Assembly: GCA_018238545.1 (NCBI GenBank)
Contig: JABCTC010000061.1
Coordinates: 1-16,914 of the forward strand
Origin: Candidatus Heimdallarchaeota archaeon
GTDB taxonomy: Archaea > Asgardarchaeota > Heimdallarchaeia > Heimdallarchaeales > Heimdallarchaeaceae
DNA length: 16,914 nucleotides
Direction of reading: 5' to 3'
The notes under the pieces were generated by a model. The model ran no database searches. It was not told the origin of the DNA and saw only the letters and a list, made by a program, of their open reading frames with translations. Below, piece after piece: positions 1,327-16,914 of this stretch (its first letter is position 1; each line of letters begins with the position of its first letter). The translations under genes were made by a program, and so were the position numbers.

Positions 1327-1971
1327 ATGATGTGTGTAGAATTTTCTTGTATTGTGATAGATGGACATGGATTAGCATCAGTTATTCTTTCTTACAATAC
1401 TTCTGCAGGATGGACAGATATCCCAATGACAGAAACAGAAGAAAATAGATATTCTGTCAGTCTTACGAATTCGGAATCACTTCACTGCATTCTGTATAAG
1501 ATTTCCGCAACTGATAGTTTAGAAAATACCCAGGTAAGTACAACACGTGAACTAATCTTTCATGAAACGATTTTACCTGAAGTAACAGACATCAAACTTG
1601 ATCCTAAAAGGCCTAAGAGCGGGGAAGAAGTGGAAATATCCTTTAATGCTTATGATTCATCTGGATTGAAAAAAATCGTTTTTTCCTACAATTTTGAAGG
1701 AATTTGGAAGAACAAATCAATATACGATGTAGAACAAGAACATTTCAGTGTGATTCTCCAGATACCTGAAGAAGGAAGTGTTATTCAGTTCAAAATTTAT
1801 GTATTTGATGTTTGGGAAAACTGTTACATAACTGAGATAATTTCTGTTGATTTAAACGTTAGTTCCACAGATGTTTCGCCACTATTTATTGTATTAGCTA
1901 TTACATTTTTGTCTTCAACTTATCTGTTGAGTAAGAGAAATGGTAGAAAAAACAGGTTCAACAAGAACTAA
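1327..1971 (+). CDS. Surface protein with two Ig-like repeats and C-terminal TM anchor (probably 5'-truncated)
   Basis: Two repeats of D..G...V.LSY.....W....(M).......Y/F.V.L.......I.Y/FKI...D...N; C-terminal hydrophobic helix plus basic tail; no signal peptide, and an in-frame TGA at 1321. Confidence 0.65.
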   Translation: MMCVEFSCIVIDGHGLASVILSYNTSAGWTDIPMTETEENRYSVSLTNSESLHCILYKISATDSLENTQVSTTRELIFHETILPEVTDIKLDPKRPKSGEEVEISFNAYDSSGLKKIVFSYNFEGIWKNKSIYDVEQEHFSVILQIPEEGSVIQFKIYVFDVWENCYITEIISVDLNVSSTDVSPLFIVLAITFLSSTYLLSKRNGRKNRFNKN

Positions 1972-2078
1972 CAAACTTTTCTATCAAACATTTTTTCTTT
2001 TTTTGATCACTTCTCTTAAATTTAACATTGTGATAAGATATAGAAAGTCTATTTAATGAACAAGAGGTTAAAATAAAT

Positions 2079-2900
2079 ATGCCTAATATAGAGACTAATG
2101 ACATCATGACATACTATGAAATTCAGGGACAAGGGGACCCCCTCATATTCGTTCATGGAGGTTTAGTTACTTCTACTATGTGGCAATATCAAGTAGATTA
2201 CTTTTCTAAGTTCTATAAAGTTATTACATATGATATCAGAGGGCATGGAAAAACAGGAATTTCACCATTAAGAAAATATTCCATTGAATTATTTGCAGAT
2301 GATCTAAAAAAATTAATTGAAAAATTGAAAATAACCAAACCTATTATATGTGGGTTATCCTTGGGTGGAATGATTGCGCAAGCTTATGCCACGAAATACC
2401 TGCAAGATTTGAAGACACTAATCTTGAGCGATACTGCCATTTCAACCTCTTTAACATGTTGGGATAAACTTATGGTTTACATTTTATTTCCAAAATGGAT
2501 AATGATACCGACATTGCGTATGATGGGTGTGAGAAATTTTATCAAGTTTTCCTTTTGGTTTGCAAAATTAACAAGAGGAAAAGAGTGGATTGGCAATAAA
2601 GAAATTGAGGAATATGAAAGAAATGAAATGCTGAAAATGGACAAAAAAGAGTATTTGAAAGTATTCGGAGCCATTTATGATTTCAAACTTCAAGATTTAT
2701 CTAAAATAAATTTGCCTACTTTGGTTCTTAATGGTGAGAATGAATCAAAGTCCGTGCATTATCATGCAGAAGTAATGAAAAATTTAATGCCAAATTGTAA
2801 ATCAGGAATTATACCTAACGCGGGACATACTTCAAACCTTGAAAATCCCAAGGAATTCAATAAAGCTTTGAAAAAGTTTCTTAATACACATCAAAATTAA
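2079..2900 (+). CDS. Alpha/beta-fold hydrolase (enol-lactonase/MenH-like)
   Basis: FVHG oxyanion motif, YDIRGHG, nucleophile elbow GLSLGG, LVLNGENE, catalytic His in AGHTSNLENP; GAGGT RBS upstream. Confidence 0.92.
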   Translation: MPNIETNDIMTYYEIQGQGDPLIFVHGGLVTSTMWQYQVDYFSKFYKVITYDIRGHGKTGISPLRKYSIELFADDLKKLIEKLKITKPIICGLSLGGMIAQAYATKYLQDLKTLILSDTAISTSLTCWDKLMVYILFPKWIMIPTLRMMGVRNFIKFSFWFAKLTRGKEWIGNKEIEEYERNEMLKMDKKEYLKVFGAIYDFKLQDLSKINLPTLVLNGENESKSVHYHAEVMKNLMPNCKSGIIPNAGHTSNLENPKEFNKALKKFLNTHQN

Positions 2901-3039
2901 AAAAATCTTCATCTCTACTCATAGCTAGTGAATTTTGGAAAAATTACTTAAATGTTATGCTTTCTTGAGTTAAATCAAATTCTTCAATAACAATATGTCA
3001 TTGCATTAAAGAAAAGCAATGTTTCTATTCAATTTGGAT

Positions 3040-3053
3040 AAACTTTAAATAAA
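3040..3053 (+). promoter_or_regulatory. Archaeal TATA-like promoter
   Basis: AAACTTTAAATAAA about 40-50 bp upstream of ATG 3093; AGGAG RBS at 3079-3083. Confidence 0.4.
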
Positions 3054-3092
3054 GCGAAACACTGCTTGTATTAAGTTAAGGAGCGGAAGAAT

Positions 3093-3641
3093 ATGGAAAA
3101 ATGGAAGGAAGAAATGTCTGCTATTCAAAGTGATATTGGTAGAGAAAGAAGAGCCACTTTTACAGCTCTTCCCGGTATTCAACCTTTGCTACCAACAGAC
3201 CTCGATCAGAAGAAAAGTCAGTTACAAGCTATAATTGATCGGTATCAAAACGGTGTAGTTCCCCAAATGAAGAAAGAGGGAAGAAATAACTTGATCTTTC
3301 ACAGCATCTATTATGCATTATTAACTGTATTTGCTGTGTTATCGTTTTTAAATGTAGGAACAGATGTGATTGCTCTACTTGGAACAATCGGTTTAACTGT
3401 AGTGGGAGGAGGTATTGATTTGCCAGCTATGATAAAAAGAATTATTCAAATGGTGAAACACATGCCTCTTCTAGAAAAATCAGTTAATTATTTCAACTTA
3501 GAACTAGGTTTAGCAAATGACTTTGAAACACTAGACAAATTAGAGGAAACACTAGAAAAGATTTCACATAAATCATTATCGGATTACAAAGAGTTCATCA
3601 AAATACTAATAGACATTAAGGAAATAGAAGATAATCGATAA
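3093..3641 (+). CDS. Hypothetical membrane protein with two TM helices
   Basis: Hydrophobic hairpin (LIFHSIYYALLTVFAVLSFL / VIALLGTIGLTVVGGGI) flanked by charged helical regions; own RBS and terminator. Confidence 0.7.
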   Translation: MEKWKEEMSAIQSDIGRERRATFTALPGIQPLLPTDLDQKKSQLQAIIDRYQNGVVPQMKKEGRNNLIFHSIYYALLTVFAVLSFLNVGTDVIALLGTIGLTVVGGGIDLPAMIKRIIQMVKHMPLLEKSVNYFNLELGLANDFETLDKLEETLEKISHKSLSDYKEFIKILIDIKEIEDNR

Positions 3642-3678
3642 CAAGATTTCTTGGAAATCTTGAATTTTTATTTTTTTC
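3642..3678 (+). terminator. Stem-loop plus T-tract terminator
   Basis: Perfect 9-bp stem CAAGATTTC-TTG-GAAATCTTG (3642-3662) immediately after the stop, followed by ttttta ttttttt. Confidence 0.65.
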
Positions 3679-3794
3679 AATATGATAGCAATAATTTTGA
3701 ATCACAAATGGGTTCTAGAAGTGAATAGCTGAAACATACTTTCATATACTCAAATGAAGTATTTATCTTCAATAAATATCTCAGAGGTATAATC

Positions 3795-4751
3795 TTGTTA
3801 AAGGCTGTTGATATAACTAAAGTCTATCCCTCAAATAGAGTAAGAGCATTAGAAAAATTTTCTATTGATATCAAACCTGGTGAGATAATGGGTTTACTCG
3901 GACCGAATGGAGCTGGTAAGTCAACTTTTGTGAGAATTGCTGTTGGAGTCTTGGATAGAGATTTAGGCTCATTATCAGTTTGCGGATATGATTCTGATTC
4001 AGAGAGGAAGAAGATCTCAAATTTAGTTTCATGGATTCCTCAAGAGGGAACCTCTAAGATGATTCTGAATAGAACTGGGCGAGAAAATATAATCTATTAT
4101 TCTTGGATAAAAGGATTATCGAGAAAAGAATCAGAACGAAGAATTGATGAGCTTTTGGAGAAATTGAATATTGACAAAAGGATATTAAATAAAACCTATC
4201 GTATTATGAGTGGAGGTCAAAAACAGTTAACTAACATTATTAATGGCTTGATTATGGATTCAAAATTGTTGTTCTGTGATGAGATATCTGTAAGTATTGA
4301 TCCAATTATAACAAAGTCAATTTATGATTATCTCAGAGAATACACCTCTGATGGACGCGCTGTTCTTCTTACTTCACAAAATATATCTGAAGTGGAAAAT
4401 CTTTCAGATCGAATAGCAATAATTCAATCTGGAAAGTTAGTGGCACTTGATAAACCACGAGAAATTTCTAAAAAAATACTGAAATATGAGGTAATTGATC
4501 TGATATTTGAGAATGACGTAGTTGAAAATAAGGCTTTTTCAAGTTTTAATTCTGAGTTAGAAGAACAAAAGTATTTTCAATCCGAAGAGCTCAATAATAA
4601 TGTTCTCCATATTAGGTCAGATAATGCTAATAAACTACTCAAATCTATCCTGGTTTTACTAGAGAAATATTCCTTGAATCCATCGATAGAATCTGGTAAA
4701 GCTAATCTTAGCATGGCTCTTCAAATGTTGAAAAAGGAGGAAGAAAAATGA
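3795..4751 (+). CDS. ABC-2 type exporter ATP-binding subunit
   Basis: Walker A GPNGAGKS, Q-loop WIPQE, signature MSGGQKQ, Walker B LLFCDE; TTG start after GAGGT. Confidence 0.93.
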   Translation: MLKAVDITKVYPSNRVRALEKFSIDIKPGEIMGLLGPNGAGKSTFVRIAVGVLDRDLGSLSVCGYDSDSERKKISNLVSWIPQEGTSKMILNRTGRENIIYYSWIKGLSRKESERRIDELLEKLNIDKRILNKTYRIMSGGQKQLTNIINGLIMDSKLLFCDEISVSIDPIITKSIYDYLREYTSDGRAVLLTSQNISEVENLSDRIAIIQSGKLVALDKPREISKKILKYEVIDLIFENDVVENKAFSSFNSELEEQKYFQSEELNNNVLHIRSDNANKLLKSILVLLEKYSLNPSIESGKANLSMALQMLKKEEEK

Positions 4752-5590
4752 AAACTTTTTATGCAAATTTCTGGAGAGAAATGAAATACAATCTCGGTCG
4801 GAGAGGTGTATGGATGGGACGATTGGTAAATGTTTCTGTCTCCATACTTACAGCTTTTGCAATGGGAATCATCTACTCTTTCAGTTCTGATGCTCAATCG
4901 ATTGTGGGAATAGCTAATGTAGGCTTATTTCTTTTAACTGGTTTTTTCTTACAGTATTTAGTTCTTTCAAGTGTAACTATAGCCCCAAATACTTTTTGGA
5001 GTGATATAAGGAATGGATCTTTTGAATTCATTTTTTATTATGAATTTAGTATCTCTGAATATATCTTTGGGATTTACTTTGCCCAATTCATTATAGATTT
5101 CGTTATTTCTCTACCTTTTCTAATAGCAATTATCATCGTAGCAGCAATAAATTCAATTCCAGTTATTTTAATCATCGCTTTCATAGGTTTTCTCATTTTT
5201 TCTTTCTTATGTTTATTTTCTATTACAATGTTGTTCGCTTCACTCTATGTTCTTAGTAAACAATTTATGGGTTATCACGGAGCTGTTACTTATATAGCCT
5301 ATTTCGTATGTGGTGTCTATTTCCCCATTTTAGGATATCTCTCTCTCTTTGGACAAACAGCAGGATGGGCGATAATTGGAATAATCTCTATTTTTCCATA
5401 TACACAAGTATTTGATATTGCTAGATATATTATTTTTGGTTCAAGTTACACCCTCGCCTATCCTGCACTTTGGGTTGCTTTTCTGATAATGATTTCCAGT
5501 TCGATTATTTTTTATTTCTTATCATTAATTATTTTCAGGAAAGGTTTCAAAAATCTGAGAAAGGAAGGGTTCGCAGCTTACCGTTACTAA
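4748..5590 (+). CDS. ABC-2 type exporter permease
   Basis: About 6 TM helices, DIRNGSFE motif (E..GT.E-like), late FP/P..Y motifs; ATGA overlap with the ATPase stop and GGAGG RBS. Confidence 0.88.
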   Translation: MKTFYANFWREMKYNLGRRGVWMGRLVNVSVSILTAFAMGIIYSFSSDAQSIVGIANVGLFLLTGFFLQYLVLSSVTIAPNTFWSDIRNGSFEFIFYYEFSISEYIFGIYFAQFIIDFVISLPFLIAIIIVAAINSIPVILIIAFIGFLIFSFLCLFSITMLFASLYVLSKQFMGYHGAVTYIAYFVCGVYFPILGYLSLFGQTAGWAIIGIISIFPYTQVFDIARYIIFGSSYTLAYPALWVAFLIMISSSIIFYFLSLIIFRKGFKNLRKEGFAAYRY

Positions 5591-5660
5591 TTATCTCACC
5601 CAGAAAATTTAATATCAAGTTATACTACTTTCTAGAAAGAGTTGAATTCGAGGGAATAAA

Positions 5661-6764
5661 ATGAATAAGGAAGAACAACCATTAACCCCTACATTGCCTT
5701 ACGTTTTTCAAACCAAAGTTACTCAACAAGGCATTATAACAATCCCTTTCTCTTTGAAATTAGTTTTAGATAATCATTATCTGTTCAACTTTCAACCTCT
5801 GAAAAGTGAAATCATTTATTCCCAGGTTAAACAGATAAAACACTCAGGACAAAGACAATATGTTTCTTGTCGCATTAAATCTCCTTTCTTACAAAAGGGA
5901 GATGAAGTAAAGGTTACCATAGTCAAGGAATTTAAAGCTTCAGAAGAGTTTACTGTTGATGATGAAGATGAAGAGTATTCCCTTCTTTTTAACCAAACTG
6001 TTAGATGTTTGTTCCTGTACTCTTTTCAAGAGAAAGATGAAATCTTAACCGCAGAAGAGAGCAAGGACTTTCTAGGAGAGCATCCAAATTTCACTAGGCA
6101 TGAGTTTATCAAGAACTCCCTTGATCTGCTTAATAAGAAAGATGATATATTCACAAAAGAGGAAAAAGAATTCTTTGATATATTACGTTTCAAAAATTAT
6201 GCGGTAATTAGGTTCGTTGGGAAAAAACGCGCTTTGAGTTTTGATGTCCTTCAGCAAAAACCTTCAGAAGAGGCAAAGAAAGCCTATGAAACACATATCC
6301 CATTTGTCTTTATTGTGCTTACGAAGATTGATTATACGCAATTTTTACTCTCTCAACATCTTAGGACTAGGTTCAAACTCTTTCTAGATAAATTTCAAAG
6401 TGTGTCATCTTATCTTCCTTATGTGATTAAGGAGTTTTCTTCACTTCTACAGAGCGATATATTTGAGATAATGACAAAGTTTGATGATAGTACAAGAAAA
6501 TTCAATAGCCTTGATGATGTGAGATTCTGGTTTTTTATACCAGCTGAATATCATGATTTAATCAAGAAAATCCAGATGGAATTTTACTCAGGAAAGAAGT
6601 TTGTAAAAATAAACGAGTTGATAGAATCAATGAAAACAGAAAAGGGAAACACTGAGGCAAAACAACTAGTAGTTAATGCAATAGAATGGTTGTATAGGCA
6701 CCAAGTAATCAATGTAAGAGAGATGGATGGAGAGAAAATAATGGAGATATATAAGATTGAATAA
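5661..6764 (+). CDS. Multidomain putative regulator: N-terminal AbrB/SpoVT-like DNA-binding region, C-terminal winged-helix-like region
   Basis: TKVTQQGIITIP..LK..L and LQKGDEVKVTI resemble AbrB/MazE swapped-hairpin motifs; acidic linker EEFTVDDEDEEY; C-terminal VKINELIESM...VVNAIEWLYRHQVINVRE resembles wHTH. Confidence 0.5.
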   Translation: MNKEEQPLTPTLPYVFQTKVTQQGIITIPFSLKLVLDNHYLFNFQPLKSEIIYSQVKQIKHSGQRQYVSCRIKSPFLQKGDEVKVTIVKEFKASEEFTVDDEDEEYSLLFNQTVRCLFLYSFQEKDEILTAEESKDFLGEHPNFTRHEFIKNSLDLLNKKDDIFTKEEKEFFDILRFKNYAVIRFVGKKRALSFDVLQQKPSEEAKKAYETHIPFVFIVLTKIDYTQFLLSQHLRTRFKLFLDKFQSVSSYLPYVIKEFSSLLQSDIFEIMTKFDDSTRKFNSLDDVRFWFFIPAEYHDLIKKIQMEFYSGKKFVKINELIESMKTEKGNTEAKQLVVNAIEWLYRHQVINVREMDGEKIMEIYKIE

Positions 6765-7563
6765 ACACAACAAGAAGATAAATTCTCAAGTCATAAGCTT
6801 CTATTCTTATAGAGGTGGAACAGGAAAATCAACCATCGCTTCGAACCTTGCTATCATCTCCTCAAAAAAATACAAAACAATTCTAGTTGATTTAGATCTC
6901 TATTCTCCTCAATTAACATATATCTTTGAGAAAACAAGTGAGAACTACATAAATGATTATCTGCACTCCTCTCTCTTTACATCTAAACATGCTAAAAATC
7001 GAATTGAAAGCTTAGATGAGGTGATTTGTGAAAGCTCGTTTAAGAACCTTGATTTAGTATTGGCAAACCCTAGGATGTCTCTTACTGATAACACAATTTT
7101 ACATGATGAAATAATTACAAAAAAGGTTTTTCCTTGCTTCCAACATATGATAGAATTACTCAAAACCCAATATGAAGTAATAATCCTCGATTGCCCTGGA
7201 GAATTGAATTACTATACACTTAATGGTATAGCTGTAGCAGATAGAGCTGTAGCAGTAAGTATTCCCACCATTGCTAATGTTAAGGGAATGATAGAGTTAT
7301 TGAAAATTTTTAGTTCTGCACTTCAAGGTAAAAAAACTGATATTATTCTGATGATGATAACCCCAAGACCATCAAAAACAAAAGTAGAAAAATTAGAGAA
7401 ATGGAAACAAGAACTGGAAAAATATTCTCTAGAAAATTATCTTTGTTTTGATTATTCAGAAAATATTGCTTATAGGCATCAATTTGAAGATGACTTCTTT
7501 TATCTCCCAGAAGAAGAGGAGTATCAGAAATTGGAAGAATATTTGGCAGCAATTCTGAAGTGA
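6757..7563 (+). CDS. MinD/ParA-family (SIMIBI) ATPase
   Basis: Deviant Walker A SYRGGTGKST, switch I ILVDLDLYSP, Walker B YEVIILDCPG; overlaps the upstream stop. Confidence 0.9.
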   Translation: MNKHNKKINSQVISFYSYRGGTGKSTIASNLAIISSKKYKTILVDLDLYSPQLTYIFEKTSENYINDYLHSSLFTSKHAKNRIESLDEVICESSFKNLDLVLANPRMSLTDNTILHDEIITKKVFPCFQHMIELLKTQYEVIILDCPGELNYYTLNGIAVADRAVAVSIPTIANVKGMIELLKIFSSALQGKKTDIILMMITPRPSKTKVEKLEKWKQELEKYSLENYLCFDYSENIAYRHQFEDDFFYLPEEEEYQKLEEYLAAILK

Positions 7564-8891
7564 TTAAAATGGAACTCAAAACTTTACTATCACTGAAGAA
7601 AAAGGGAAAATGGATACATTATAATCTGATAAATCAAACAATGGTAAGAACTTCTCTTTCTCCAACAGAGCTAGATAGATCTCCTGCAGAAATCAAGAAA
7701 GAGCTGTTGTATGGAACAGATAAGGATTTGTTAATTAAATCTAATAGACATTATTATCAACAAGTTAGAGAAGAAATTACGAAGAGAAGAGAGTGGAACA
7801 CGCCTTTTCTATCAAGAAGTGAAGTAACTGTAACCTTATGGTACGATTGTAACTTTGCTTGCCCATATTGTTACCAAAAAGAAGAATATTATGATAAGGC
7901 AAAAGAAAGTGATGAAATCAATATTGAAAAGGCCATAGAATTCTTCAGAATAAAATCAAAAAATGGTGAGTTTCCTCCAAAAACTGTAGTTTTGATAGGT
8001 GGTGAACCTTTACTAAAAGGTAAGAAAAATAGAGATACTATAATAACACTCCTGAGAGCTCTCAATAAACTCTTTCTTGGAATTGAAATACACGTTATAT
8101 CCAATGGATATTATTTAGAAGAATATGCGGATACGCTTTCCCAATTCAATAATTTGAATATCGGATTAACAATTACGCTAGGATCTACAAGAAAGAAACA
8201 CAAGTTTGAAAGAATACTTAGAACTAAAAATTCAGAAGATACTTTTGAAAAAATATTTGTAGGCATGAAGTATTTTAGGAAGCAAATTCCTAAAGGTGGA
8301 ATTGTTATTAGAATGAATTTTGGACCAGATTACAACGAAGTAAATGAAACTACGGATTTGATGTATTTGATTAAAGAAGAAATACCCAATGTGAAATTTG
8401 AACTTTCTCCAGTCGTCTCATTTTCTAACCATCAAGAAATCAGTCTAGGTTTTTTCAAATTAATTAAGGAATTGATGATAAGCGAGGACTTCTCAAAGTC
8501 TTTCAAAATGAAATTAAATGATAATCTATATTACTTGTTACGTAATTCAATTCCACAACTAACAAAAAAAGAAATTTCATCAAAAAAGAAAATATGTAGT
8601 GCTGTTCTTTTAACAACAAACTATGATTTGTTTTCTGATTTCCAAATTCAACCTTGCGAGGATTTTAGAAACTATGAGAGTATAGATGGCGTCAATTTGA
8701 AGATATCAGAAGCTTTCATTGAATATCTTGATAAGAGAGTTGAGCAATGTATAGACTGTCCATTTTTTGTGGGATGTATCTCACATCCCTGTGAGATAGT
8801 AAAAAGAGCAACTCTAGAAAAAAGAGTTTGTTATGGGAGAGAACTATTACCACTTTTACAAATTATTGAAGAATTTTATTTAACAAAATAA
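7560..8891 (+). CDS. Radical SAM/SPASM-domain peptide maturase
   Basis: CNFACPYC (CxxxCxxC), GGEPLL, ISNG; C-terminal Cys array C-x19-C (QIQPC)...CIDCPFFVGCISHPC...C typical of SPASM; about 80-aa N-terminal extension compatible with a RiPP recognition element. Confidence 0.9.
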   Translation: MIKMELKTLLSLKKKGKWIHYNLINQTMVRTSLSPTELDRSPAEIKKELLYGTDKDLLIKSNRHYYQQVREEITKRREWNTPFLSRSEVTVTLWYDCNFACPYCYQKEEYYDKAKESDEINIEKAIEFFRIKSKNGEFPPKTVVLIGGEPLLKGKKNRDTIITLLRALNKLFLGIEIHVISNGYYLEEYADTLSQFNNLNIGLTITLGSTRKKHKFERILRTKNSEDTFEKIFVGMKYFRKQIPKGGIVIRMNFGPDYNEVNETTDLMYLIKEEIPNVKFELSPVVSFSNHQEISLGFFKLIKELMISEDFSKSFKMKLNDNLYYLLRNSIPQLTKKEISSKKKICSAVLLTTNYDLFSDFQIQPCEDFRNYESIDGVNLKISEAFIEYLDKRVEQCIDCPFFVGCISHPCEIVKRATLEKRVCYGRELLPLLQIIEEFYLTK

Positions 8892-8940
8892 TAGGATAAA
8901 TTTAAAAGAGTGTATGTCACTTAGAAGACAAGGTGATTCA

Positions 8941-9132
8941 ATGGGAAGAAGAGATAAAAATACAGAAGATAAATTAACATTTGAAGTAATTATAAGAAAT
9001 ACAGTAACAAGTGGAGCACAATCTAGTATTCAAACTGTTAGTGATCCACCTAGTGATTGTCCTGGTCAGTGTGGGCAATCTGATTTAGGATCTTCGCTTA
9101 GAACCTCAGCCTGTGATATATTATTGTGGTAA
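8941..9132 (+). CDS. Putative RiPP precursor peptide (63 aa)
   Basis: AGGTGA RBS at 8931-8936 favours ATG 8941 over 8914; MGRRDKNTEDKLTFEVIIRN leader-like part plus S/T/G/D/C-rich core (DPPSDCPGQCGQSDLGSSLRTSACDILLW); directly downstream of the rSAM/SPASM gene. Confidence 0.75.
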   Translation: MGRRDKNTEDKLTFEVIIRNTVTSGAQSSIQTVSDPPSDCPGQCGQSDLGSSLRTSACDILLW

Positions 9133-9164
9133 TAAGCAATATTTAAGTTATCGAAAATATCTAA

Positions 9165-10853
9165 TTGGTGTTTACAATACTATTCTCTTTTATTTATTTG
9201 AAGAAAAATCATCCATTAAGAACATGTATACTAGAAACTAGTAAACTTTTTTGTGATTATTCAGCTTCAGATTCTGATTTTATAGAATCTGTAAGAAAAA
9301 TATTAACTGCTTCGGAATCTCAATCATTAAAAGAAGAAGAGTTGTATACAATAAAATCTGCTGTAGATTGTATAGAAGTATTTCTAGCAGATTATGATTT
9401 TAAAAGGTTTGATGAAATTTGTTCAAAAGCAAAATCTGTAGGATATCGTGAAAGCTTTATTGATTTGCTACTCTTAAAAGGTTTGATTTTAAGTTCTTTG
9501 AGTATGTCTGGCTTAAATCGCAATTTTAGAATAAGCGAGAAAGAGAAGATTTTCTCTTTGTTAAAAGAAGTTGATTTACAAAAAAACATCTATTTTGATT
9601 TAATATATGGAAAATATCTCTTCATAAAAGGGAATGAGCAACAAGCGTCTATTCTTTACGAAGATCTAAAAAACAGAATCGCTCAAGATGACTGTGCTTC
9701 ACAGGTTATCATTTTGAATCTTCTCTCTTGTATATATGAACGTGAGCCTTCCAAACAGATTAGTATCATAAACGAGGGGATGAATGGTACTTGCTTTTAT
9801 TGGAACTTCGTTATTCAATATATAGACTTCTTAACACAAAGGGGAAAATATGTAGAATTACTTCAAGAAGGTTCTATCTTCTTGCAAAAATTAGATGAAA
9901 ATAAAGTAATAGAATTACTTCACAAAAAAGCACATATATTAAACCATATGATCAAAGCATCTTATAAATTGAATGAACAAGCTAAAATGAATCATTACAC
10001 CCAGCTTTTTAGAGAAGCTCTAGACGAACTTCCGGATGATAACCATGGATTGAAGAGAAATTTTGAGTTTCTTAAATTCACACATGAAATTTTGTATCAA
10101 GCATTTTATGAAGAAAAATTACAAATTGATTTGAGTGATAAGAAAATCCAAACTTTTAGTAAAAATCATTATGTGAAAATGTTGCAATCATTTCTTATAG
10201 TGAACCCACTAATAAATAGACTTATTCAAGATGGTGAGTTTGATCAAGCTTCTCTTTTTATAAATAATATAGAGAAAGGAAAAGGATACTCACAATCTAC
10301 TGATGAGTTAATAACTTTCATGAAATACTTCTCTCTTTCACTTCTCATTGATAAATCCCTAAAATGGAAGAAATATAACAGTAAGAATTATGAAGGGAAT
10401 CAGACTGAAGTGGCTTTAGCTTATTTAGAAGAAGGTACAACATATCTAGGTGAACTAGATTATTCATTCAAAATAGCTTCTTTTCTTCAAGAAATTATCT
10501 TGAAATCGAGATTAGGTAGATTGAATGAAGTTAAAGAAACAGTTTTAGATGATATACAACTAACTGAAGGTTATGATCGTATACTTGCACTGATGGTTTC
10601 ACTTCTTTATTATTCTGGTAATGAGGAGATAGAAAAATTTCACAAAACTAAACAAGTGTTGCTTTTTGAATTAGACAAATATAAGGAACTGAGTTCTTAC
10701 AGTATTTGGAAAGAAAATATGAATAACCTCTTTTCATTCCTAGATGTTAAAGATAAAGTTCTTTCTACAAGGAAAACAACCTTCTTAGATATAGAACAAA
10801 TTAAGTCTTATACAACCTTCTTACAAAATCAGATCCATAAACAAATGGTATAA
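9165..10853 (+). CDS. Large alpha-helical (TPR-like) repeat protein
   Basis: Amphipathic helix pairs with TPR-like signatures (YGKYLFIKGNEQQASILYE; FLTQRGKYVELL; LIQDGEFDQASLFI; SRLGRLNEVKE). Start codon uncertain. Confidence 0.6.
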   Translation: MVFTILFSFIYLKKNHPLRTCILETSKLFCDYSASDSDFIESVRKILTASESQSLKEEELYTIKSAVDCIEVFLADYDFKRFDEICSKAKSVGYRESFIDLLLLKGLILSSLSMSGLNRNFRISEKEKIFSLLKEVDLQKNIYFDLIYGKYLFIKGNEQQASILYEDLKNRIAQDDCASQVIILNLLSCIYEREPSKQISIINEGMNGTCFYWNFVIQYIDFLTQRGKYVELLQEGSIFLQKLDENKVIELLHKKAHILNHMIKASYKLNEQAKMNHYTQLFREALDELPDDNHGLKRNFEFLKFTHEILYQAFYEEKLQIDLSDKKIQTFSKNHYVKMLQSFLIVNPLINRLIQDGEFDQASLFINNIEKGKGYSQSTDELITFMKYFSLSLLIDKSLKWKKYNSKNYEGNQTEVALAYLEEGTTYLGELDYSFKIASFLQEIILKSRLGRLNEVKETVLDDIQLTEGYDRILALMVSLLYYSGNEEIEKFHKTKQVLLFELDKYKELSSYSIWKENMNNLFSFLDVKDKVLSTRKTTFLDIEQIKSYTTFLQNQIHKQMV

Positions 10854-11131
10854 TGGGGTTGAACCAAGTACTGTTGATTTTTTTTCGGTTTATTAGTAAT
10901 TTCTTAATTATAAATCAGAAATTCAATTTTTTTGACTTATGACCACAATGATGCAATAAACTGAAATTCAGACCTTGTTTAAAGGTCTACTTCTTGGAAC
11001 TTCCTCCATATTAGAAGTAACAAGCATTTACATGATAATGCAAATCTATCTCACGTGTCAAACGAAACACATTTATTTTGTATATTATGGTAAATTTCTC
11101 ATTCTTTTTTACTAAAAATCAGAAAATATAT

Positions 11132-11147
11132 AAACTTTATAAATAAA
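11132..11147 (+). promoter_or_regulatory. TATA-box-like promoter of cas operon
   Basis: AAACTTTATAAATAAA (TTTATAAA at 11136-11143), nearly identical to the element upstream of 3093. Confidence 0.45.
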
Positions 11148-11188
11148 CTCAATATTGAATATTTGTTCATCTATTTATTTAACTCAAC

Positions 11189-11201
11189 TGTCAGTATGAC
11201 A
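11189..11201. promoter_or_regulatory. Palindrome TGTCA-GTA-TGACA upstream of cas8
   Basis: Perfect 5-bp inverted repeat between the TATA-like box and the cas8 start. Confidence 0.35.
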
Positions 11202-11233
11202 TAAATACGTATCAAAATTGGGGAAGAATAAGG

Positions 11234-12745
11234 TTGAAAGTAAAAGAATTGAAAATATCAACATATTCAAATTTTTGGTTAGATAATGGCATTGTTTCAC
11301 TCTATTCTTTAATTAAAAATTGTAAAGGTATTTCCAATTTAGAACTAACAAATGAAGAATTGTGTTTTACAATTAATGATTTAACTATCTTCATAGATCA
11401 ATTGAGAAACAATATACTTCGAGAAGTGAACCGAGTTCTTTTCTTCCAGATTCAAGATCCACAAACTAAACTTATCAAAATTGTAAGAAGACAGTATGTA
11501 ATTTCACAACAAGTAAAAGGTGGAGCACTTAAAGAAAAGATTTTCAATGAAGAACATGTAAAGCAACAGCTTGAGGATGCTTTTGATTTTGATACAAAAA
11601 AGAAGACTTGCGTTATATGTGGTAATGAATATTCAAAATCAAAGAATTTAACACAGACTGTATTCCCACTAGTTACTAAGATGAAAAGTCTAGGAGGAAT
11701 AAGAGGGAATAAAGAATATATTGATGTATGTCCAATATGTTATTTAGTTTCAGCTTCAGCCTGGTTGGATAATAATATTTATACAAACATCGATCCGAGT
11801 ACGAAAGGTTTCTCAATATTGCTTCTTCCAATTCAAAATAATTTGGTGAACTATTATAAAGTTAAAAAAATGATAAGAACTGTCACTGATATGCAAACCA
11901 CTAAAATGTCTAGCATATTAGTGAAATCAATAACTCAAGATAGGAAAAAAAGAAAAGTCAGAGGATATGAAAAATATTCCACATTATTATTACTTCTAGA
12001 AGAGTTGATGCATAAATTAAGAGAACCAGATTCTGATCCATTTTCAGCTAAGTTGAATGATTTAGTAAACACCGAATGGTATTCTCTAACAATCCCCCAT
12101 GGAGGTATGAAGAATATTAAAACAGAAATCATATCTATAGATCATAGGATTATTAATTTATTGAATACTCTTATTGAGAAGTATAACAATTTAAGAATAT
12201 ATTCAGATTTTGTTGACAAAATCTATGTTACATCTGATGGGAAACCAGATTTTGCTAGTGGCAAGAAGATAAAAGAATCTTTAGCCATGGCTCTAATTAA
12301 AAATGATCTAGATTTGTTCTGCACAACTATTTTTCCTTCTAGAGGTTTAACTGTATCATTTTCTTTTAGCAATATTGATTTTCTATTATACGAATGGAGG
12401 TTAAGAATTTTGAATTATGGAATGGAAAAACTCGAAGTCTTTAAAAAAACTGCAAACATCATTGCAGAGGTAAGTAAGAAAAACACAGGTCTCTTTTATA
12501 GATTAGATAAAACTAGAACTTTCTCTGATTTTCTTGAATCAATTAAAGATGCTGCACGGGGTATGGTTAGTCTAAGCTCATCTGCTGAACAAGGAGAAAC
12601 AAAGTATAAAATATCCCCAACAGCTTTTGATGATTTTCTGACATTACTACTTGAAAATCAACAACATTGGAAGGATATCAAGAGTATTTTAATTATTTAC
12701 ACAGCAATGTATTATTCAATAAAAATGAAAAAAATAAGAGGTTGA
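11234..12745 (+). CDS. cas8a1: Type I CRISPR large subunit Cas8a1/Cst1 (CXXC-CXXC family)
   Basis: N-terminal NFWLDNGIVSL, zinc motif CVICG...FPL...CPICY, helical Cas11-like C-terminus; first gene before cas7-cas5. Confidence 0.82.
   Translation: MKVKELKISTYSNFWLDNGIVSLYSLIKNCKGISNLELTNEELCFTINDLTIFIDQLRNNILREVNRVLFFQIQDPQTKLIKIVRRQYVISQQVKGGALKEKIFNEEHVKQQLEDAFDFDTKKKTCVICGNEYSKSKNLTQTVFPLVTKMKSLGGIRGNKEYIDVCPICYLVSASAWLDNNIYTNIDPSTKGFSILLLPIQNNLVNYYKVKKMIRTVTDMQTTKMSSILVKSITQDRKKRKVRGYEKYSTLLLLLEELMHKLREPDSDPFSAKLNDLVNTEWYSLTIPHGGMKNIKTEIISIDHRIINLLNTLIEKYNNLRIYSDFVDKIYVTSDGKPDFASGKKIKESLAMALIKNDLDLFCTTIFPSRGLTVSFSFSNIDFLLYEWRLRILNYGMEKLEVFKKTANIIAEVSKKNTGLFYRLDKTRTFSDFLESIKDAARGMVSLSSSAEQGETKYKISPTAFDDFLTLLLENQQHWKDIKSILIIYTAMYYSIKMKKIRG
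12410..12745 (+). CDS. cas11: Probable internally translated small subunit Cas11 (in frame within cas8)
   Basis: GGAGGT at 12396-12401 lies 8 nt before in-frame TTG 12410 (ATG at 12422); the product (107-111 aa) has the GLFYRLDKTRTFSDFLESI helical motif typical of Cas8 C-termini/small subunits. Confidence 0.55.
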   Translation: MNYGMEKLEVFKKTANIIAEVSKKNTGLFYRLDKTRTFSDFLESIKDAARGMVSLSSSAEQGETKYKISPTAFDDFLTLLLENQQHWKDIKSILIIYTAMYYSIKMKKIRG

Positions 12746-12749
12746 AAAA

Positions 12750-13673
12750 ATGAAAGATAAAATAAAAGGTATTAGCTTAACATGGTTATCAAAAGTAGAT
12801 CTCTCCAACTTAAATAGTGGAGAAGGAGGAAGCAATTATATTGATGTCAAGAAATTCAAAGCGAACAATATAGACTATCCATATGTTAGCGGACAAGCTA
12901 TGCGGCATTACATCAAATCAGCAATTAGAAGACTGGGTGCAGAAGGATGTATCTTAAATGAAAAAGGTGAAGGATGCCGAGATATTCAATCTTGTATAAT
13001 TTGTGATTTATTTGGTTTTATGTCTCCCAAAGCAAAAAGTGGGGCAGAAACAAGAATTTCTCCCGTAAAAGTGTCTCCAGCGATAGGATTATATCCATTA
13101 GATGAAAATATAACCGTAGATTTTCTAACAAGAAAGAAGTATAAAGGTGAAAAATATATCGGAGACATAGTTCATGTTGAACTTGCTCACAACCTTTATC
13201 GATGTGGAATTAGTATAGATATAAGAAGAGTTTCTGCTGAAGAAATTCCTAATTCAAGTGAAGCAAAAATTGAGCTTAAAGAATATGGAGGAATAGATCA
13301 AGCAAAAATTAGGATTAAATTGCTATTGCGAGCTTTATTATACTTAACCGAAGCTTCAAAACAATCTAGATTACTTACAGATTTCACACCAGATTTCTTG
13401 GTTATTACTTTTCAAAAGCACTTTTCAAACCGAATTCAAAAAGCTTTATCAATCCAAGAATACGAGAAATTAGATCTGGTTAGATTTGAAAGCATTATAA
13501 ATGATTTGAAGTTTGATGATAATATTATAATCGTGGGAATGCTGCCTAACACGATAAGAGAAGAGCAGAAAATTAAAAAAATCTTAGAAGAATCTGATAT
13601 CCCCATATTTAGTCCTAAGAAAGCTATTGAAGAATCAGTGAAATTGTTAGAAAAAATTGAAATATCTAGGTAG
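12750..13673 (+). CDS. cas7: Cas7/Cst2/DevR backbone subunit
   Basis: SNLNSGEG..N..DVKK, PYVSGQAMRHYIK, CDLFGFM, RISPVKVSPAI, KQSRLLTDFTPD motifs. Confidence 0.93.
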   Translation: MKDKIKGISLTWLSKVDLSNLNSGEGGSNYIDVKKFKANNIDYPYVSGQAMRHYIKSAIRRLGAEGCILNEKGEGCRDIQSCIICDLFGFMSPKAKSGAETRISPVKVSPAIGLYPLDENITVDFLTRKKYKGEKYIGDIVHVELAHNLYRCGISIDIRRVSAEEIPNSSEAKIELKEYGGIDQAKIRIKLLLRALLYLTEASKQSRLLTDFTPDFLVITFQKHFSNRIQKALSIQEYEKLDLVRFESIINDLKFDDNIIIVGMLPNTIREEQKIKKILEESDIPIFSPKKAIEESVKLLEKIEISR

Positions 13674-13674
13674 G

Positions 13675-14352
13675 ATGTGTAAATTGTTAGGTATACGATT
13701 TGATTTGGATCCTGTTAACTTTGTTTGCTTTAGAAATCCAATAACAAATAGCACAATATTAACCTACCCTATACCCCCTTTCACAACCATAATTGGATTA
13801 TTAGAATCTTGCTTAGGGAAACCATCGATTGAGAAACGTAATGATTTGAAAGAATTTCACCTTATAGATAAGGTTAGAATAGGATTACGAATTTTAGACG
13901 AAGGAAGTAAAAACAGAGAAATAGCCTTAATATTAAAGCTGAAAGAGGGAAGTGGGTCTTCACCTGTATTTAGAGAGTTTTTAGCATATCCAAAGTATAG
14001 AGTCTATCTTACTTCTGATAACAAAAGTTTACTTGAAAGAATTCACGGAGCTCTAAAAAATCCAAGACGGCCTTTATATTTGGGTTCATCTGATGACTTA
14101 GTTGATATTAGGAATATTAAGATGTTACCAATTCAGAAAGTTAAATCAAATTATATTGATGGTATTGGCTTTTACCCTTATCCTGATACTTCAACAATTC
14201 AGATACCATGGAAGTTTATGCAAATAGGAAAATCTTGGAATGTTGAAAAAGTACCTGTCTCAATACCAACCAGAGAGAAAATATTCTTTGATATCCCAAA
14301 GGAGGTATATGTGTTTGAAGAAGATAGAATTGAACTCTCACCCCCTAGGTAA
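13675..14352 (+). CDS. cas5: Cas5 (Cas5t/DevS-like)
   Basis: FRNP......TYPIPPFTTIIGLLESCLG, SPVFREFL, LKNPRRPLYLGSSDDLV; ATG at 13675 directly after the cas7 stop is the likelier start. Confidence 0.92.
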   Translation: MCKLLGIRFDLDPVNFVCFRNPITNSTILTYPIPPFTTIIGLLESCLGKPSIEKRNDLKEFHLIDKVRIGLRILDEGSKNREIALILKLKEGSGSSPVFREFLAYPKYRVYLTSDNKSLLERIHGALKNPRRPLYLGSSDDLVDIRNIKMLPIQKVKSNYIDGIGFYPYPDTSTIQIPWKFMQIGKSWNVEKVPVSIPTREKIFFDIPKEVYVFEEDRIELSPPR

Positions 14353-14530
14353 AGCAAATATTCATGGTTATGGGCAGACTCTCTGTGGTCATCAACGAGA
14401 TACTGTTATTTCATTTATGTATTTTCTAAAGCAAGAATCTGGATCAGTTAGAGCTTTCTGCAAAAGGTGGGCAATAGAATACAATCACTTTGTCCAAAAC
14501 ATGCTTTTTGTATGTTATTTTCATTGTTAG
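14309..14530 (+). pseudogene. cas3: Truncated Cas3 HD-nuclease N-terminus
   Basis: GGAGGT at 14301-14306, ATG 14309 (or TTG 14330); PLGK.....QTLCGH..D (first HD-domain His motif) ... LFVCYFH, then C* instead of the expected D.GK; position after cas5. Confidence 0.78.
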
Positions 14531-14855
14531 ACCTTCCCTTTGTTAGCAAGTTCAAGCCGTTCACGGATAGAAAAGCTTAAGTTTGACTCACGCTCCTCAA
14601 AATCAGCAATCGCATTGGTAATGTTAAAAAGCGTATTATTAAGCCTTATTATGGTATTGTTATAATCCATCAAAAGCCGTGCCTCTCCACCGGTTGCCTC
14701 ACGGGCCAGTTTCCGGCCACCAACGAACTCTTTGATAAAGTCCGCCTTAAACACAATATTGTTTCGTATAGTTTTCATTATACTACCCCCATTTTTGGAT
14801 TATTATAATTATCCAAGTAACAAGAAAATATAAGCCTAAAAATAACATACAAAAA
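14505..14855. repeat. 17-bp perfect inverted repeat pair (14505-14521 / 14839-14855)
   Basis: TTTTTGTATGTTATTTT at 14505-14521 and its reverse complement AAAATAACATACAAAAA at 14839-14855. Confidence 0.8.
14527..14778 (-). CDS. Hypothetical viral protein (83 aa, C-terminal coiled-coil-like)
   Basis: GGGGG RBS 7 nt before ATG; last gene of the minus-strand run, with its stop 2 bp from the cas3 His codon. Confidence 0.7.
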   Translation of the reverse strand: MKTIRNNIVFKADFIKEFVGGRKLAREATGGEARLLMDYNNTIIRLNNTLFNITNAIADFEERESNLSFSIRERLELANKGKV

Positions 14856-14923
14856 AACCACGTTGTCAAAAAATTAGTAAGTAGCGAAATTAAACCGTGT
14901 TCAGTCAAATAAACTGCAATCAT
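14783..14923 (-). CDS. 46-aa membrane protein (not in ORF track)
   Basis: MIAVYLTEHGLISLLTNFLTTWFFCMLFLGLYFLVTWIIIIIQKWG*; AAGGGGTG RBS; fills the gap between neighbours. Confidence 0.65.
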   Translation of the reverse strand: MIAVYLTEHGLISLLTNFLTTWFFCMLFLGLYFLVTWIIIIIQKWG

Positions 14924-14934
14924 AGGCACACCCC

Positions 14935-15141
14935 TTATTTTCTAATCAAGTCATGTTTCATTGCCCGGATAACGCCAGCAGGAAACCACTTTGTTTTTTT
15001 TACTTTAATAAGAACTTCGTCACCTTCAAACCTTACAATCTCACACCGGATATATTTTATACTTGAAGTATACCCGGCTAATTTAGGTGCATTCTTATCA
15101 AAAACAATCGCTTTGTGCATAAAATATAATGTTGTTTTCAT
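14935..15141 (-). CDS. Hypothetical basic viral protein (68 aa)
   Basis: GAGGTG RBS; tightly packed with neighbours. Confidence 0.7.
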   Translation of the reverse strand: MKTTLYFMHKAIVFDKNAPKLAGYTSSIKYIRCEIVRFEGDEVLIKVKKTKWFPAGVIRAMKHDLIRK

Positions 15142-15151
15142 GCCACACCTC

Positions 15152-15601
15152 TTAAAGTTTTCTTTTTATATAATTCACCAACCGGCCCAAACAATAAACG
15201 GGTAATGTAAAAATTGCAGTTCCAAACGAAAGCAAGTGAAAACATACCATAGCAAACAACCCCTTGTCTTTTACTGCCTGAACTACCTTTTTGTTTTTAA
15301 CCGCAAGGGCTTTCCTATCCGCCTCTCTAATAACATCTATAACATAACTTAAAGCAGCCGTGGCTTCTTTGGCAGTTACACCCTTATGCAAGGTTACAGT
15401 TACAGGCGTGTCATTATTTGTGAACTCATTTCTTGTGGCAAGTCCTATTGCAAACTTATCCTTAGAGCCCGGTTTGGCGGCCCCTATTCCAAAAGAGGAA
15501 CAGGGCAATATTACACACGTTGTGTTAAGCCGCCTCAAAACATCTATCCGAATCTTCTCCTCGTTTGTCAAACTATTATTTAATTCAGTTGTTGTTTTCA
15601 T
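15152..15601 (-). CDS. Hypothetical viral protein with C-terminal hydrophobic segment (149 aa)
   Basis: AAGGAAGTGA RBS; LFAMVCFHLLSFGTAIFTLPVYCLG segment followed by a basic tail. Confidence 0.7.
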   Translation of the reverse strand: MKTTTELNNSLTNEEKIRIDVLRRLNTTCVILPCSSFGIGAAKPGSKDKFAIGLATRNEFTNNDTPVTVTLHKGVTAKEATAALSYVIDVIREADRKALAVKNKKVVQAVKDKGLFAMVCFHLLSFGTAIFTLPVYCLGRLVNYIKRKL

Positions 15602-15616
15602 TTGTCACTTCCTTTT

Positions 15617-15826
15617 TTAGTATGTCATTCTAATCTGGTTCTGTTCTGTAAGGGTAGCACTGTAAAATAAATCATTTGACTTGCCATAGACACCATTCGC
15701 AAGGGCCTTAAAGTGATCACCGTCACCGTAATGTCCCTTATAATCACACGCAAGGCCTTTATTCCATAAAGTATCCCCCATCCTATCGTATACCGACATC
15801 TTATCCATACGTTCTTTTAGTGTCAT
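15617..15826 (-). CDS. Hypothetical viral protein (69 aa; start corrected from 15922)
   Basis: AGGGGG RBS before ATG 15826, which overlaps (ATGA) the stop of the upstream gene; begins MTLKERMDKMSVYDRMGD. Confidence 0.65.
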   Translation of the reverse strand: MTLKERMDKMSVYDRMGDTLWNKGLACDYKGHYGDGDHFKALANGVYGKSNDLFYSATLTEQNQIRMTY

Positions 15827-16005
15827 TCCGCACCCCCTAACGGCACTTTGTGGCCCTTTTTGTTCTTTCCTGATAAAACAATACCACGGCCCCCGCACTG
15901 GCTTGTGCCTTTTGCAGGACACTTCTCACAAGCCTGCAAGCCGTAAAACTGAACCGTCCAACACTCATCTGTCAAATTGCCTTGTTTGATGTTTAATACT
16001 TTCAT
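15823..16005 (-). CDS. Small Cys-rich viral protein (60 aa)
   Basis: AAAGGGGG RBS; C-x10-CxxC-x7-C pattern (ECW...ACEKC...QCGG). Confidence 0.7.
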   Translation of the reverse strand: MKVLNIKQGNLTDECWTVQFYGLQACEKCPAKGTSQCGGRGIVLSGKNKKGHKVPLGGAE

Positions 16006-16016
16006 AGATACCCCCT

Positions 16017-16244
16017 TTACTTTGCGTATAGTAATGTATTGTTTGCATTGCCAAAGCTTATAGGCAATACGAACTCCATTGCAAGTAAGTAGTTGTTAGC
16101 GCAAAGAGGACACACCACTTCGAGTCTATCTTTGCCCCTGTCTAACAACACGCCACCATTATCGTATTTCGCTTTGCATAGCGTGCATATAAAACTACCG
16201 ATAACCACGGGTCTTTTGTTATACTCAATAACCATATTGTTCAT
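16017..16244 (-). CDS. Small zinc-finger protein (CxxC-x21-CxxC)
   Basis: AGGGGG RBS; CTLC...VCPLC. Confidence 0.7.
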   Translation of the reverse strand: MNNMVIEYNKRPVVIGSFICTLCKAKYDNGGVLLDRGKDRLEVVCPLCANNYLLAMEFVLPISFGNANNTLLYAK

Positions 16245-16272
16245 AACGCCCCCTGTCTATTTAGAGTTAAGG

Positions 16273-16443
16273 TTATTCTTTGTCTAAATACGAAGGGTAA
16301 CAGGGCCTTCTTGGTTTAAGAGCACCACTTGAAAGAAACCAACGGTCTAACACCCGGTCAATTCCTTTTTCAAGCAAAGGAAGGCCACGGCTCACAAGTA
16401 CAACCCAACCAACGAAAACTAATATCCAGAATAAGAGTTCCAT
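16273..16443 (-). CDS. 56-aa membrane protein (not in ORF track)
   Basis: MELLFWILVFVGWVVLVSRGLPLLEKGIDRVLDRWFLSSGALKPRRPCYPSYLDKE*; AAAGGGGG RBS overlapping the end of the upstream gene. Confidence 0.65.
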   Translation of the reverse strand: MELLFWILVFVGWVVLVSRGLPLLEKGIDRVLDRWFLSSGALKPRRPCYPSYLDKE

Positions 16444-16445
16444 AA

Positions 16446-16844
16446 TTACCCCCTTTCAAGCCATATAACATCCGGCTTGCCATACGTTTTATAATCCCAT
16501 GAGACAGGGGCGGAGAGGTCATGCCACGGAGCCCGGCGGACAATCTTGAAACCAACACGTTCATAATACTTTCGTAAAAAACCGTCAAAACAAAAGATCT
16601 TGTTTGCGCCTTTACTTATGGCATAATCCATTGCTTCACGTCCGCAAAGCTTTGTTCCGGTATTGTTAAATAAGTTAAACAACTCTTTGTCATCAGTTAA
16701 TCCGAACCCAACACCGCCACCAATAGATACATACAAATCAGCTTTGTCAAGATATTCTTTTGTATGGACTGTTAAAAAAAACAACCGGTTACTAAAACAC
16801 AACTGTCTATTAAATTCTTTTGCATCTGTTTTAATGAATTCCAT
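16446..16844 (-). CDS. GNAT-fold acetyltransferase-like phage protein
   Basis: LFN...KLCGREAMDYAISKGA (motif A-like), CFDGFLRKYYERVGF (motif B, Y...GF), W....AP..WDY...GKPDV tail; AGGGGG RBS. Confidence 0.65.
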   Translation of the reverse strand: MEFIKTDAKEFNRQLCFSNRLFFLTVHTKEYLDKADLYVSIGGGVGFGLTDDKELFNLFNNTGTKLCGREAMDYAISKGANKIFCFDGFLRKYYERVGFKIVRRAPWHDLSAPVSWDYKTYGKPDVIWLERG

Positions 16845-16855
16845 AGCACCCCCTG

Positions 16856-16914
16856 TTATCTAAAAAAATACATTACTGCCAAGGTTACAATCAAGACCAA
16901 CACGGTTATAACTC
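16856..16914 (-). CDS. 3' end of a membrane protein (partial)
   Basis: ...VITVLVLIVTLAVMYFFR* ending just before the RBS of the GNAT gene. Confidence 0.5.
   Translation of the reverse strand, partial: VITVLVLIVTLAVMYFFR

Follow-up and report, generated by a model that had tools for sequence, protein, structure and literature searches.

What does a group of seven genes encoding a small peptide, a peptide-modifying enzyme, an exporter and a ParA-type ATPase do in an Asgard archaeon? The question is raised by a 16,914-nucleotide stretch from a Candidatus Heimdallarchaeota archaeon (GenBank assembly GCA_018238545.1, contig JABCTC010000061.1), referred to here as the window, which is the entire contig C75 of a 3.63-Mb genome (34% GC). 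A preliminary description, made from the letters alone, had proposed that positions 3795-10853 encode an archaeal system for a peptide that is made by ribosomes and modified after translation (RiPP), perhaps an antimicrobial or a quorum-like signal. The seven-gene cluster is genuine and conserved as a unit, and it is best explained as an accessory RiPP locus in which three modules come together: an ABC-2 exporter of the ATP-binding cassette (ABC) type; a switch made of ParA and its partner, called protein X here; and a specificity cassette of a radical S-adenosylmethionine (radical SAM) maturase, its precursor peptide and a tetratricopeptide repeat (TPR)-like protein.

A seven-gene cluster conserved as a unit

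Seven open reading frames (ORFs) run in one orientation on the forward strand, at 3795-4751, 4748-5590, 5661-6764, 6757-7563, 7560/7569-8891, 8914/8941-9132 and 9165-10853, just as the preliminary description had placed them, and encode in this order the ABC ATPase, the permease, X, ParA, the maturase, the precursor and the TPR-like protein. All seven genes are found in three further complete homologous loci (L005, L006 and L016) with almost unchanged lengths; at L008 the cluster is readable as far as the beginning of the TPR gene, and at L009 all genes are present, with twin precursors placed after the TPR gene. Gene order and lengths are retained even at 34-39% identity, and the genes upstream of the cluster vary among loci. 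The close relatives of the maturase (n = 5) show 39-76% identity. The ratio of nonsynonymous to synonymous divergence (dN/dS) is below 1 for every gene in all pairs, amounting to 0.05-0.29 for the six large genes (near-identical pairs set aside) and 0.19-0.63 for the peptide. Within one Heimdallarchaeia genus, the same 3 out of 24 genomes carry the maturase, ParA, X, precursor and TPR genes, and neither the precursor nor the TPR gene was found on its own in 30 genomes of the family. The preliminary description had named as its counter-case maturase homologues that never stand beside a small ORF or these partners; instead, maturase, precursor, ParA, the AbrB protein, the TPR-like protein and the ABC pair occur together wherever the contig is long enough, and its view of a conserved RiPP-type cluster holds. 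In a phylum-wide search of 399 genomes, in which few candidates were scored per genome and G026 was missed, no full cluster was found beyond the genus. A distant locus, L030, has the order X-ParA-maturase, with about 27% identity for X, 42% for ParA and 36% for the maturase N-terminus. Set aside were a weak maturase match in G001 (27% identity), a weak peptide match with an internal stop in G004, and the unrelated locus P0031/L025. A different radical SAM-type gene of G001 (L038:7439-8917) is split by a stop into two ORFs and is unlinked to the cluster.

Translational coupling had been proposed at three overlaps. Those at 4748 (ATGA) and 6757 (8 nt, TTGAATAA) are real, and the latter, between X and ParA and with a TTG start, is retained in L005, L008, L009, L016 and L021. 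The overlap at 7560 is doubtful, because gene callers begin the L005 and L006 maturase homologues at an ATG equal to 7569 and the GTG of L008 is out of frame; by this comparison, ATG 7569 is more likely than GTG 7560 to be the maturase start. The conserved start of the precursor is ATG 8941 (63 residues, with a GGTGA ribosome-binding site), not 8914. In the TPR genes of L008 and L009 a conserved N-terminal stretch reaches upstream of the called ATG, and at L009 no standard start codon is available for this stretch, so that ATT or ATA, following a GGAGGT site, may serve as the start. A possible promoter of the precursor, with a transcription factor B recognition element (BRE) and a TATA box, may lie at 8894-8907 (+); L005 and L016 have similar boxes, and at L009 the box is duplicated, with a near-identical copy before each of the twin precursors (13200-13403 and 13517-13714). 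The hairpin and the downstream T-tracts that had been taken as boundaries both exist, but terminator-like sites occur in the window at chance level (7 observed, 7.4 expected). The hairpin at 3642-3662 (+; 9 bp and a T-rich tail) is a probable terminator of the upstream 182-residue gene, and a T8 tract at 10878-10885 (+) is a possible archaeal terminator. No Rfam match was found.

Maturase, precursor and a cassette of alleles

The radical SAM/SPASM maturase (7569-8891, +) matches PF04055 above the cut-off (6.7e-15). Numbered from GTG 7560, its CxxxCxxC motif is C97/101/104 and its seven SPASM cysteines are 346, 366, 397, 400, 406, 411 and 424; all ten are invariant in the alignment of homologues. 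The seven are ordered as C344/362/400/403/409/413/432 of CteB, three for auxiliary cluster 1 (AC1) and four for AC2; in CteB, C344, 362 and 413 serve AC1, and C400, 403, 409 and 432 serve AC2 (PMC10177961). In PapB and Tte1186, which are thioether-forming enzymes, the three-Cys (open) AC1 site binds the substrate Cys thiol (PMC10177961). The best NCBIfam match is PapB (2.7e-17; 63 bits against a cut-off of 340) and the best PDB match is 5wgg (CteB); since both are weak, the maturase is regarded as a member of an unnamed family. Its N-terminal extension of about 85 residues, with a conserved W-x-x-Y-N, is a candidate RiPP recognition element (RRE). As judged from these sequence features, the cluster probably makes a thioether-type radical SAM RiPP.

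The 63-residue precursor (8941-9132, +) consists of a leader up to an invariant Gly25, a core with D-x-P-x-x-C44 and S-x-R-[ST]-x-x-C58, and a hydrophobic tail. In an alignment of seven precursors from six loci the leader is conserved and the core variable, with invariant Gly, Asp, Cys and Ser residues; the first Cys is invariant, and the second, 14 residues on (C-x13-C), is present in six of the seven. The small ORF had been called Cys-rich, which overstates its three Cys, two of them conserved. C-x13-C by itself is not uncommon, occurring in 6 of the 176 short ORFs of the genome that are comparable, so that the evidence for the motif lies in its being kept across loci. The PapA-type C-x3-D occurs only in the precursor allele of the window, and the precursors have no family match in Pfam or NCBIfam. 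The cores are net anionic and hydrophilic. A triceptide reading was dropped because the cores have no conserved aromatic residue, as was an autoinducing peptide (AIP) thiolactone reading because AgrB is missing: none is encoded in the cluster, and PF04647 was not found in genome G000 (92% complete). The tail T-C-D-F of the L005 precursor (9222-9416) recalls staphylococcal AIP-I, which, no AgrB having been found, we take to be a coincidence.

The window and L005 are ~100% identical over 1327-7669 and ~80% identical from a break at 7670 onward, and L024 agrees with L005. Synonymous divergence (dS) between the window and L005 is 0.005-0.014 for the ABC genes, X and ParA, and 0.65-0.93 for the maturase, peptide and TPR genes, where it is at least as deep as that from L016, a lineage further away. 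Peptide and TPR identities co-vary, being 97% and 94% between L005 and L006, and 38% and 70% between the window and L005; in those comparisons ABC, X and ParA are 98-100% identical. Within the L005 and L006 maturases, the SPASM domain is 96% and the barrel 80% identical. Run X1 possibly has a connection with the source sample. In it, a single contig of depth 22 covers the left half, whereas depth is about 12-13 for the peptide-TPR allele of the window type, and further alleles are seen in the maturase gene. These depths, together with dS, fit what would be co-existing alleles of a maturase-precursor-TPR cassette on a shared frame. A chimeric join at 7670 is possible as well, because none among the X1 contigs listed bridges this position with the window allele and the relation of X1 to the source is itself uncertain. 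Positive selection on the cassette found no support, since most of its divergence is synonymous, and support is poor in trees built from the right half.

Possible roles of the peptide

The putative exporter consists of an ABC ATPase of the DrrA/NodI-like type (3795-4751, +; 318 residues; PF00005, 1e-23; TIGR01188, 2.6e-52, under its cut-off), which has no peptidase domain, and an ABC-2-type permease (4748-5590, +; 280 residues) with six transmembrane segments predicted by hydropathy and a weak PF01061 match on the L009 orthologue.

Protein X (5661-6764, +; 367 residues) had been described as an AbrB/wHTH protein, that is, with a winged helix-turn-helix (wHTH); both domains are supported by fold, but a central longin fold had been overlooked. 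In the AF2 model (pLDDT 66), residues 11-95 form a PHS018-like AbrB-type barrel (VIA Z 8.3 to 2glw) and residues 286-367 a long helix and a winged helix (Z 9.6 to a kleisin winged helix). Residues 109-274 resemble a longin/uDENN-like fold, with Z 7.9-8.5 to FLCN, Loki longin, Lst4, FNIP2 and C9orf72-SMCR8 entries; the Z values are middling and the segment is agreed on by five longin-containing entries, which align over 122-136 residues at 3.5-4.1 Å. The secondary structure of the model gives the five-strand, three-helix longin topology. Pfam finds no longin match on X, and the assignment is one of fold. The top Foldseek match of X is 8yqg, and among its Atlas neighbours is a Heimdallarchaeota cluster of whose members 23% have Folliculin. 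The longin fold is used by eukaryotes, whose closest microbial relatives are the Asgard archaea, in regulating trafficking GTPases. Asgard archaea commonly possess longin domains (10.1101/2020.10.19.343400).

ParA (6757-7563, +; 268 residues; PF13614, 2.8e-20) is a stand-alone ATPase of the ParA/MinD family. In its Walker A motif, SYRGGTGKST, the signature Lys is invariantly replaced by Arg and the second Lys is kept; the acidic C-terminal block is invariant too, and no copy of this C-terminal motif was found in viral contigs. X lies immediately upstream of ParA in every locus read, even at 27% and 16% identity. In two circular genomes of the family (3,081,793 and 3,326,783 bp), X, detected as a full-length homologue in both (hhalign 95.9%), is paired with ParA in a unit of two genes, and no maturase gene is adjacent; stand-alone X-ParA pairs occur in a sister genus. 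Because it is also present without RiPP genes, the X-ParA pair is considered an independent module. Stand-alone pairs of an X-like protein and ParA (L036:6740-8708 and L037:6988-8965; G029 and G026) carry the Walker A sequence SFSGGVGKT, with Ser for the signature Lys, and adjoin genes for DUF4365 restriction endonuclease (REase)-like and Cas4-like nucleases. At G000:C41:21669-22788 (L026), a 116-residue helix-wHTH gene overlaps a ParA gene by 8 nt, and this minimal pair resembles a basic ParA-wHTH system.

The TPR-like protein (9165-10853, +; 562 residues) is modelled by AF2 (pLDDT 63) as an all-helical solenoid; it has no transmembrane segment, varies with the peptide allele and has no relatives found outside the cluster loci. 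AimR, PlcR, RopB, NprR and Rap are among its generic TPR matches (Z ~10-11 or E >0.005). From its position and its tracking of the peptide allele, it is hypothesized to be the peptide receptor.

Put together, the maturase would bind the leader and, as its layout makes quite probable, form one or more Cys-to-carbon thioether rings from C44 and usually C58, with the conserved D39 and S52 as candidate acceptors, and the ABC-2 pair would export the product. The peptide might then act as a strain-specific signal: the allele-matched TPR-like protein would bind it and act on the nucleotide switch of ParA, and X would regulate ParA via its longin domain and bind DNA via its AbrB and winged-helix domains, setting transcription. 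We hold this function, a signal read by the TPR-like protein and relayed by the ParA-X switch, tentatively, as somewhat short of an even chance. One point for a signal is that the cores are anionic, which most membrane-active bacteriocins are not. A wider proposal, in which Asgard archaea use swappable specificity groups for signalling or kin recognition, with a thioether-cyclised peptide read by the TPR-like protein and relayed via a longin-regulated ParA, is doubtful; if true, it would mean that a eukaryote-type GTPase-regulator fold is wired into cell-to-cell signalling.

Several observations weigh against this chain from maturase to switch. The maturase scores above no curated cut-off of the named families PapB, ScfB/SCIFF, Clo7bot and FxsB, the SPASM hidden Markov model matches it marginally (E 0.044), and RRE profiles give no significant match on its N-terminal extension. 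The L008 precursor has a single Cys. In L030 the ABC genes do not lie directly upstream of X. Neither a leader protease nor an importer gene is present in the cluster, and the missing importer counts because a cytosolic receptor requires re-entry of the peptide. No helix-turn-helix (HTH) is seen in the model of the TPR-like protein, whose matches to TPR folds are generic (Z up to 13), so that likeness to an RRNPP receptor would be tentative. The occurrence of X-ParA without RiPP genes implies that the pair need not depend on the peptide. The joint variation of neighbouring genes is also explained by co-transfer of a single DNA tract, and the divergent tract in the window continues into the cas genes.

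Other functions can be weighed on the same evidence. The product might be an archaeocin-like antagonist, with the ABC pair for export or self-resistance, the TPR-like protein as an allele-matched immunity protein or chaperone, and X-ParA regulating expression only, which we consider rather unlikely. A soluble solenoid of 560 residues would be unusual as a bacteriocin immunity factor, and the anionic, hydrophilic cores also speak against antagonism, although the patchy distribution (3 of 24 genomes) and the fast-evolving core fit competition, the ABC ATPase resembles DrrA and lantibiotic-protection ABC proteins, and archaeal lanthipeptides antagonise other archaea (PMC12144867). FxsABCT-like immunity, in which ParA-wHTH(longin) would sense invading DNA, the TPR-like protein would detect invaders and the RiPP would serve as an alarm or as an antiviral product, is unlikely. 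ParA-wHTH and FxsAB-linked TIR-ParA have both been proposed as immune systems (bioRxiv 10.64898/2026.10.19.760177), and defence-type neighbours occur: cas8b-7-5 in the window, a HEPN-like gene in L017, and the REase-like and Cas4-like genes beside the stand-alone X-ParA pairs. However, the cluster has no TIR, nuclease or STAND effector, its ParA has no PG motif of the ConB2 type and retains Lys at the second Walker A position, and the gene downstream in L005, L006, L009, L016 and G019 is not one for defence but encodes a secreted surface protein.

It is also conceivable, but quite improbable, that no RiPP is secreted, the maturase modifying a protein partner as CrpC and anSME do, or the peptide being intracellular and either unmodified or disulfide-bonded, with the ABC genes as passengers. 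The leader/core pattern and the duplicated L009 precursors argue otherwise, as do the agreement of SPASM identity with peptide identity (96% for SPASM against 80% for the barrel between L005 and L006) and the ABC genes that remain attached in all close homologues. On the other hand, archaeal SPASM enzymes are able to cross-link proteins (PMC13692751), and the missing protease gene, the precursor with one Cys and the ABC genes not adjacent upstream in L030 would be readily accommodated.

Surrounding DNA and known systems

The upstream gene at 3093-3641 (+), encoding 182 residues, has no family match, is common to L005 and L024 only and lies outside the conserved cluster. Downstream, Type I-B cas8b-cas7-cas5 genes occupy 11234-14352 (+; PADLOC Cas8b 1.6e-102); no cas3 over the cut-off was found in the genome and no CRISPR array on the contig. 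At the cas position other loci carry a gene for a secreted surface protein (L005:11403-, L006:9792-, L009:14127-, L016:14103- and L046:572-) with a signal peptide, an Asp/Pro-rich linker and, in three, Big_7; the linker is loosely like the Asp-Pro stretch of the precursor, probably through composition. From 14523 to 16914 the window shifts abruptly to ~40% GC, with small ORFs on the minus strand and one PHROG match (phrog_2563), and a contig of run X1 is identical to 11001-14523 and then continues into different DNA. This region, which has no match in the phage collection, is either an integrated virus-like element or a misassembly.

Radical SAM RiPP clusters are widely predicted in archaea, and one methanogen enzyme has been characterised (PMC13692751, PMC12144867). 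In the literature searched, of which few subscription papers were part, no description was found of the present gene combination, of the AbrB-longin-winged helix architecture or of RiPP cassettes with alleles in Asgard archaea, nor of a characterised Asgard radical SAM RiPP or peptide signal, such clusters being only counted by genome mining. The parts of the locus are small and expressible, and cognate as well as non-cognate alleles exist in nature, which makes the chemistry and receptor specificity accessible in vitro without host culture. Its longin-ParA pair is a tractable one for studying whether SIMIBI ATPases are controlled by the longin domains of Asgard archaea in the way that small GTPases are by those of eukaryotes. 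Its distribution is narrow (one genus, and X-ParA pairs in the sister genus), and each module has bacterial or predicted precedents.

Ranthipeptide and sactipeptide clusters (CteAB thermocellin, PapAB freyrasin and Tte1186) share with the present one a 3+4 Cys radical SAM-SPASM enzyme, its N-terminal extension and an adjacent Cys-bearing precursor. They differ in that the scores here are far under the family cut-offs, C-x13-C replaces six Cys or a conserved C-x3-D, and ParA, a longin protein and a TPR-like protein are encoded in addition.

The preliminary description had known of no RiPP cluster in which a MinD/ParA ATPase is coupled to an AbrB-wHTH protein. Archaeal ParA-wHTH systems, including profilin-longin-like fusions, have been reported (bioRxiv 10.64898/2026.10.19.760177), in a preprint the main text of which has no mention of RiPP, ABC transporter, Asgard or Heimdall. 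As in ConB2 of these systems, the gene coupled to ParA here encodes a wHTH that follows a long helix, as well as a longin-like domain, although X has an extra AbrB-type barrel. ConB2 is marked by Arg in place of the second Walker A Lys (the preprint text is silent on which Lys this is, and the figure legend says the second) and by PG after sensor-1; the corresponding sequences here are RGGTGKST, with Arg at the first Lys, and SPQL; a ParA tree of 11 rows gave no resolved branching. The claim that no RiPP cluster with MinD/ParA had been described was wrong, since FxsT-ParA accompanies the FxsAB peptide system in Actinomycetota (bioRxiv 10.64898/2026.10.19.760177). FxsABCT also combines a peptide-modifying radical SAM system with a ParA domain and repeat-sensor domains. 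However, its ParA forms part of fusions with TIR/STAND modules and has an active TIR protein, FxsC, as partner, and FxsB is a cyclophane-forming maturase, whereas here TIR/STAND matches are absent, ParA and the TPR-like protein are encoded separately, and no aromatic residue is conserved in the core.

In streptococci, Rgg has an HTH and senses a separate short hydrophobic peptide (SHP). The RiPP loci under Rgg/SHP control, which encode radical SAM enzymes (RaS-RiPP loci), resemble the present one in linking a radical SAM enzyme and a precursor to quorum sensing by a helical-repeat peptide receptor (PMC13361665, PMC8092268). Unlike them, the present cluster shows no HTH or second peptide gene. 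In the specificity groups of staphylococcal agr, part of the maturase, the peptide and the receptor make up a block that can be swapped within a conserved frame. Although no AgrB is found in the genome, no histidine kinase is encoded in the cluster and the chemistry would be another, the present locus is like agr, by analogy only, in combining a shared frame with an exchangeable maturase part, peptide and putative receptor.

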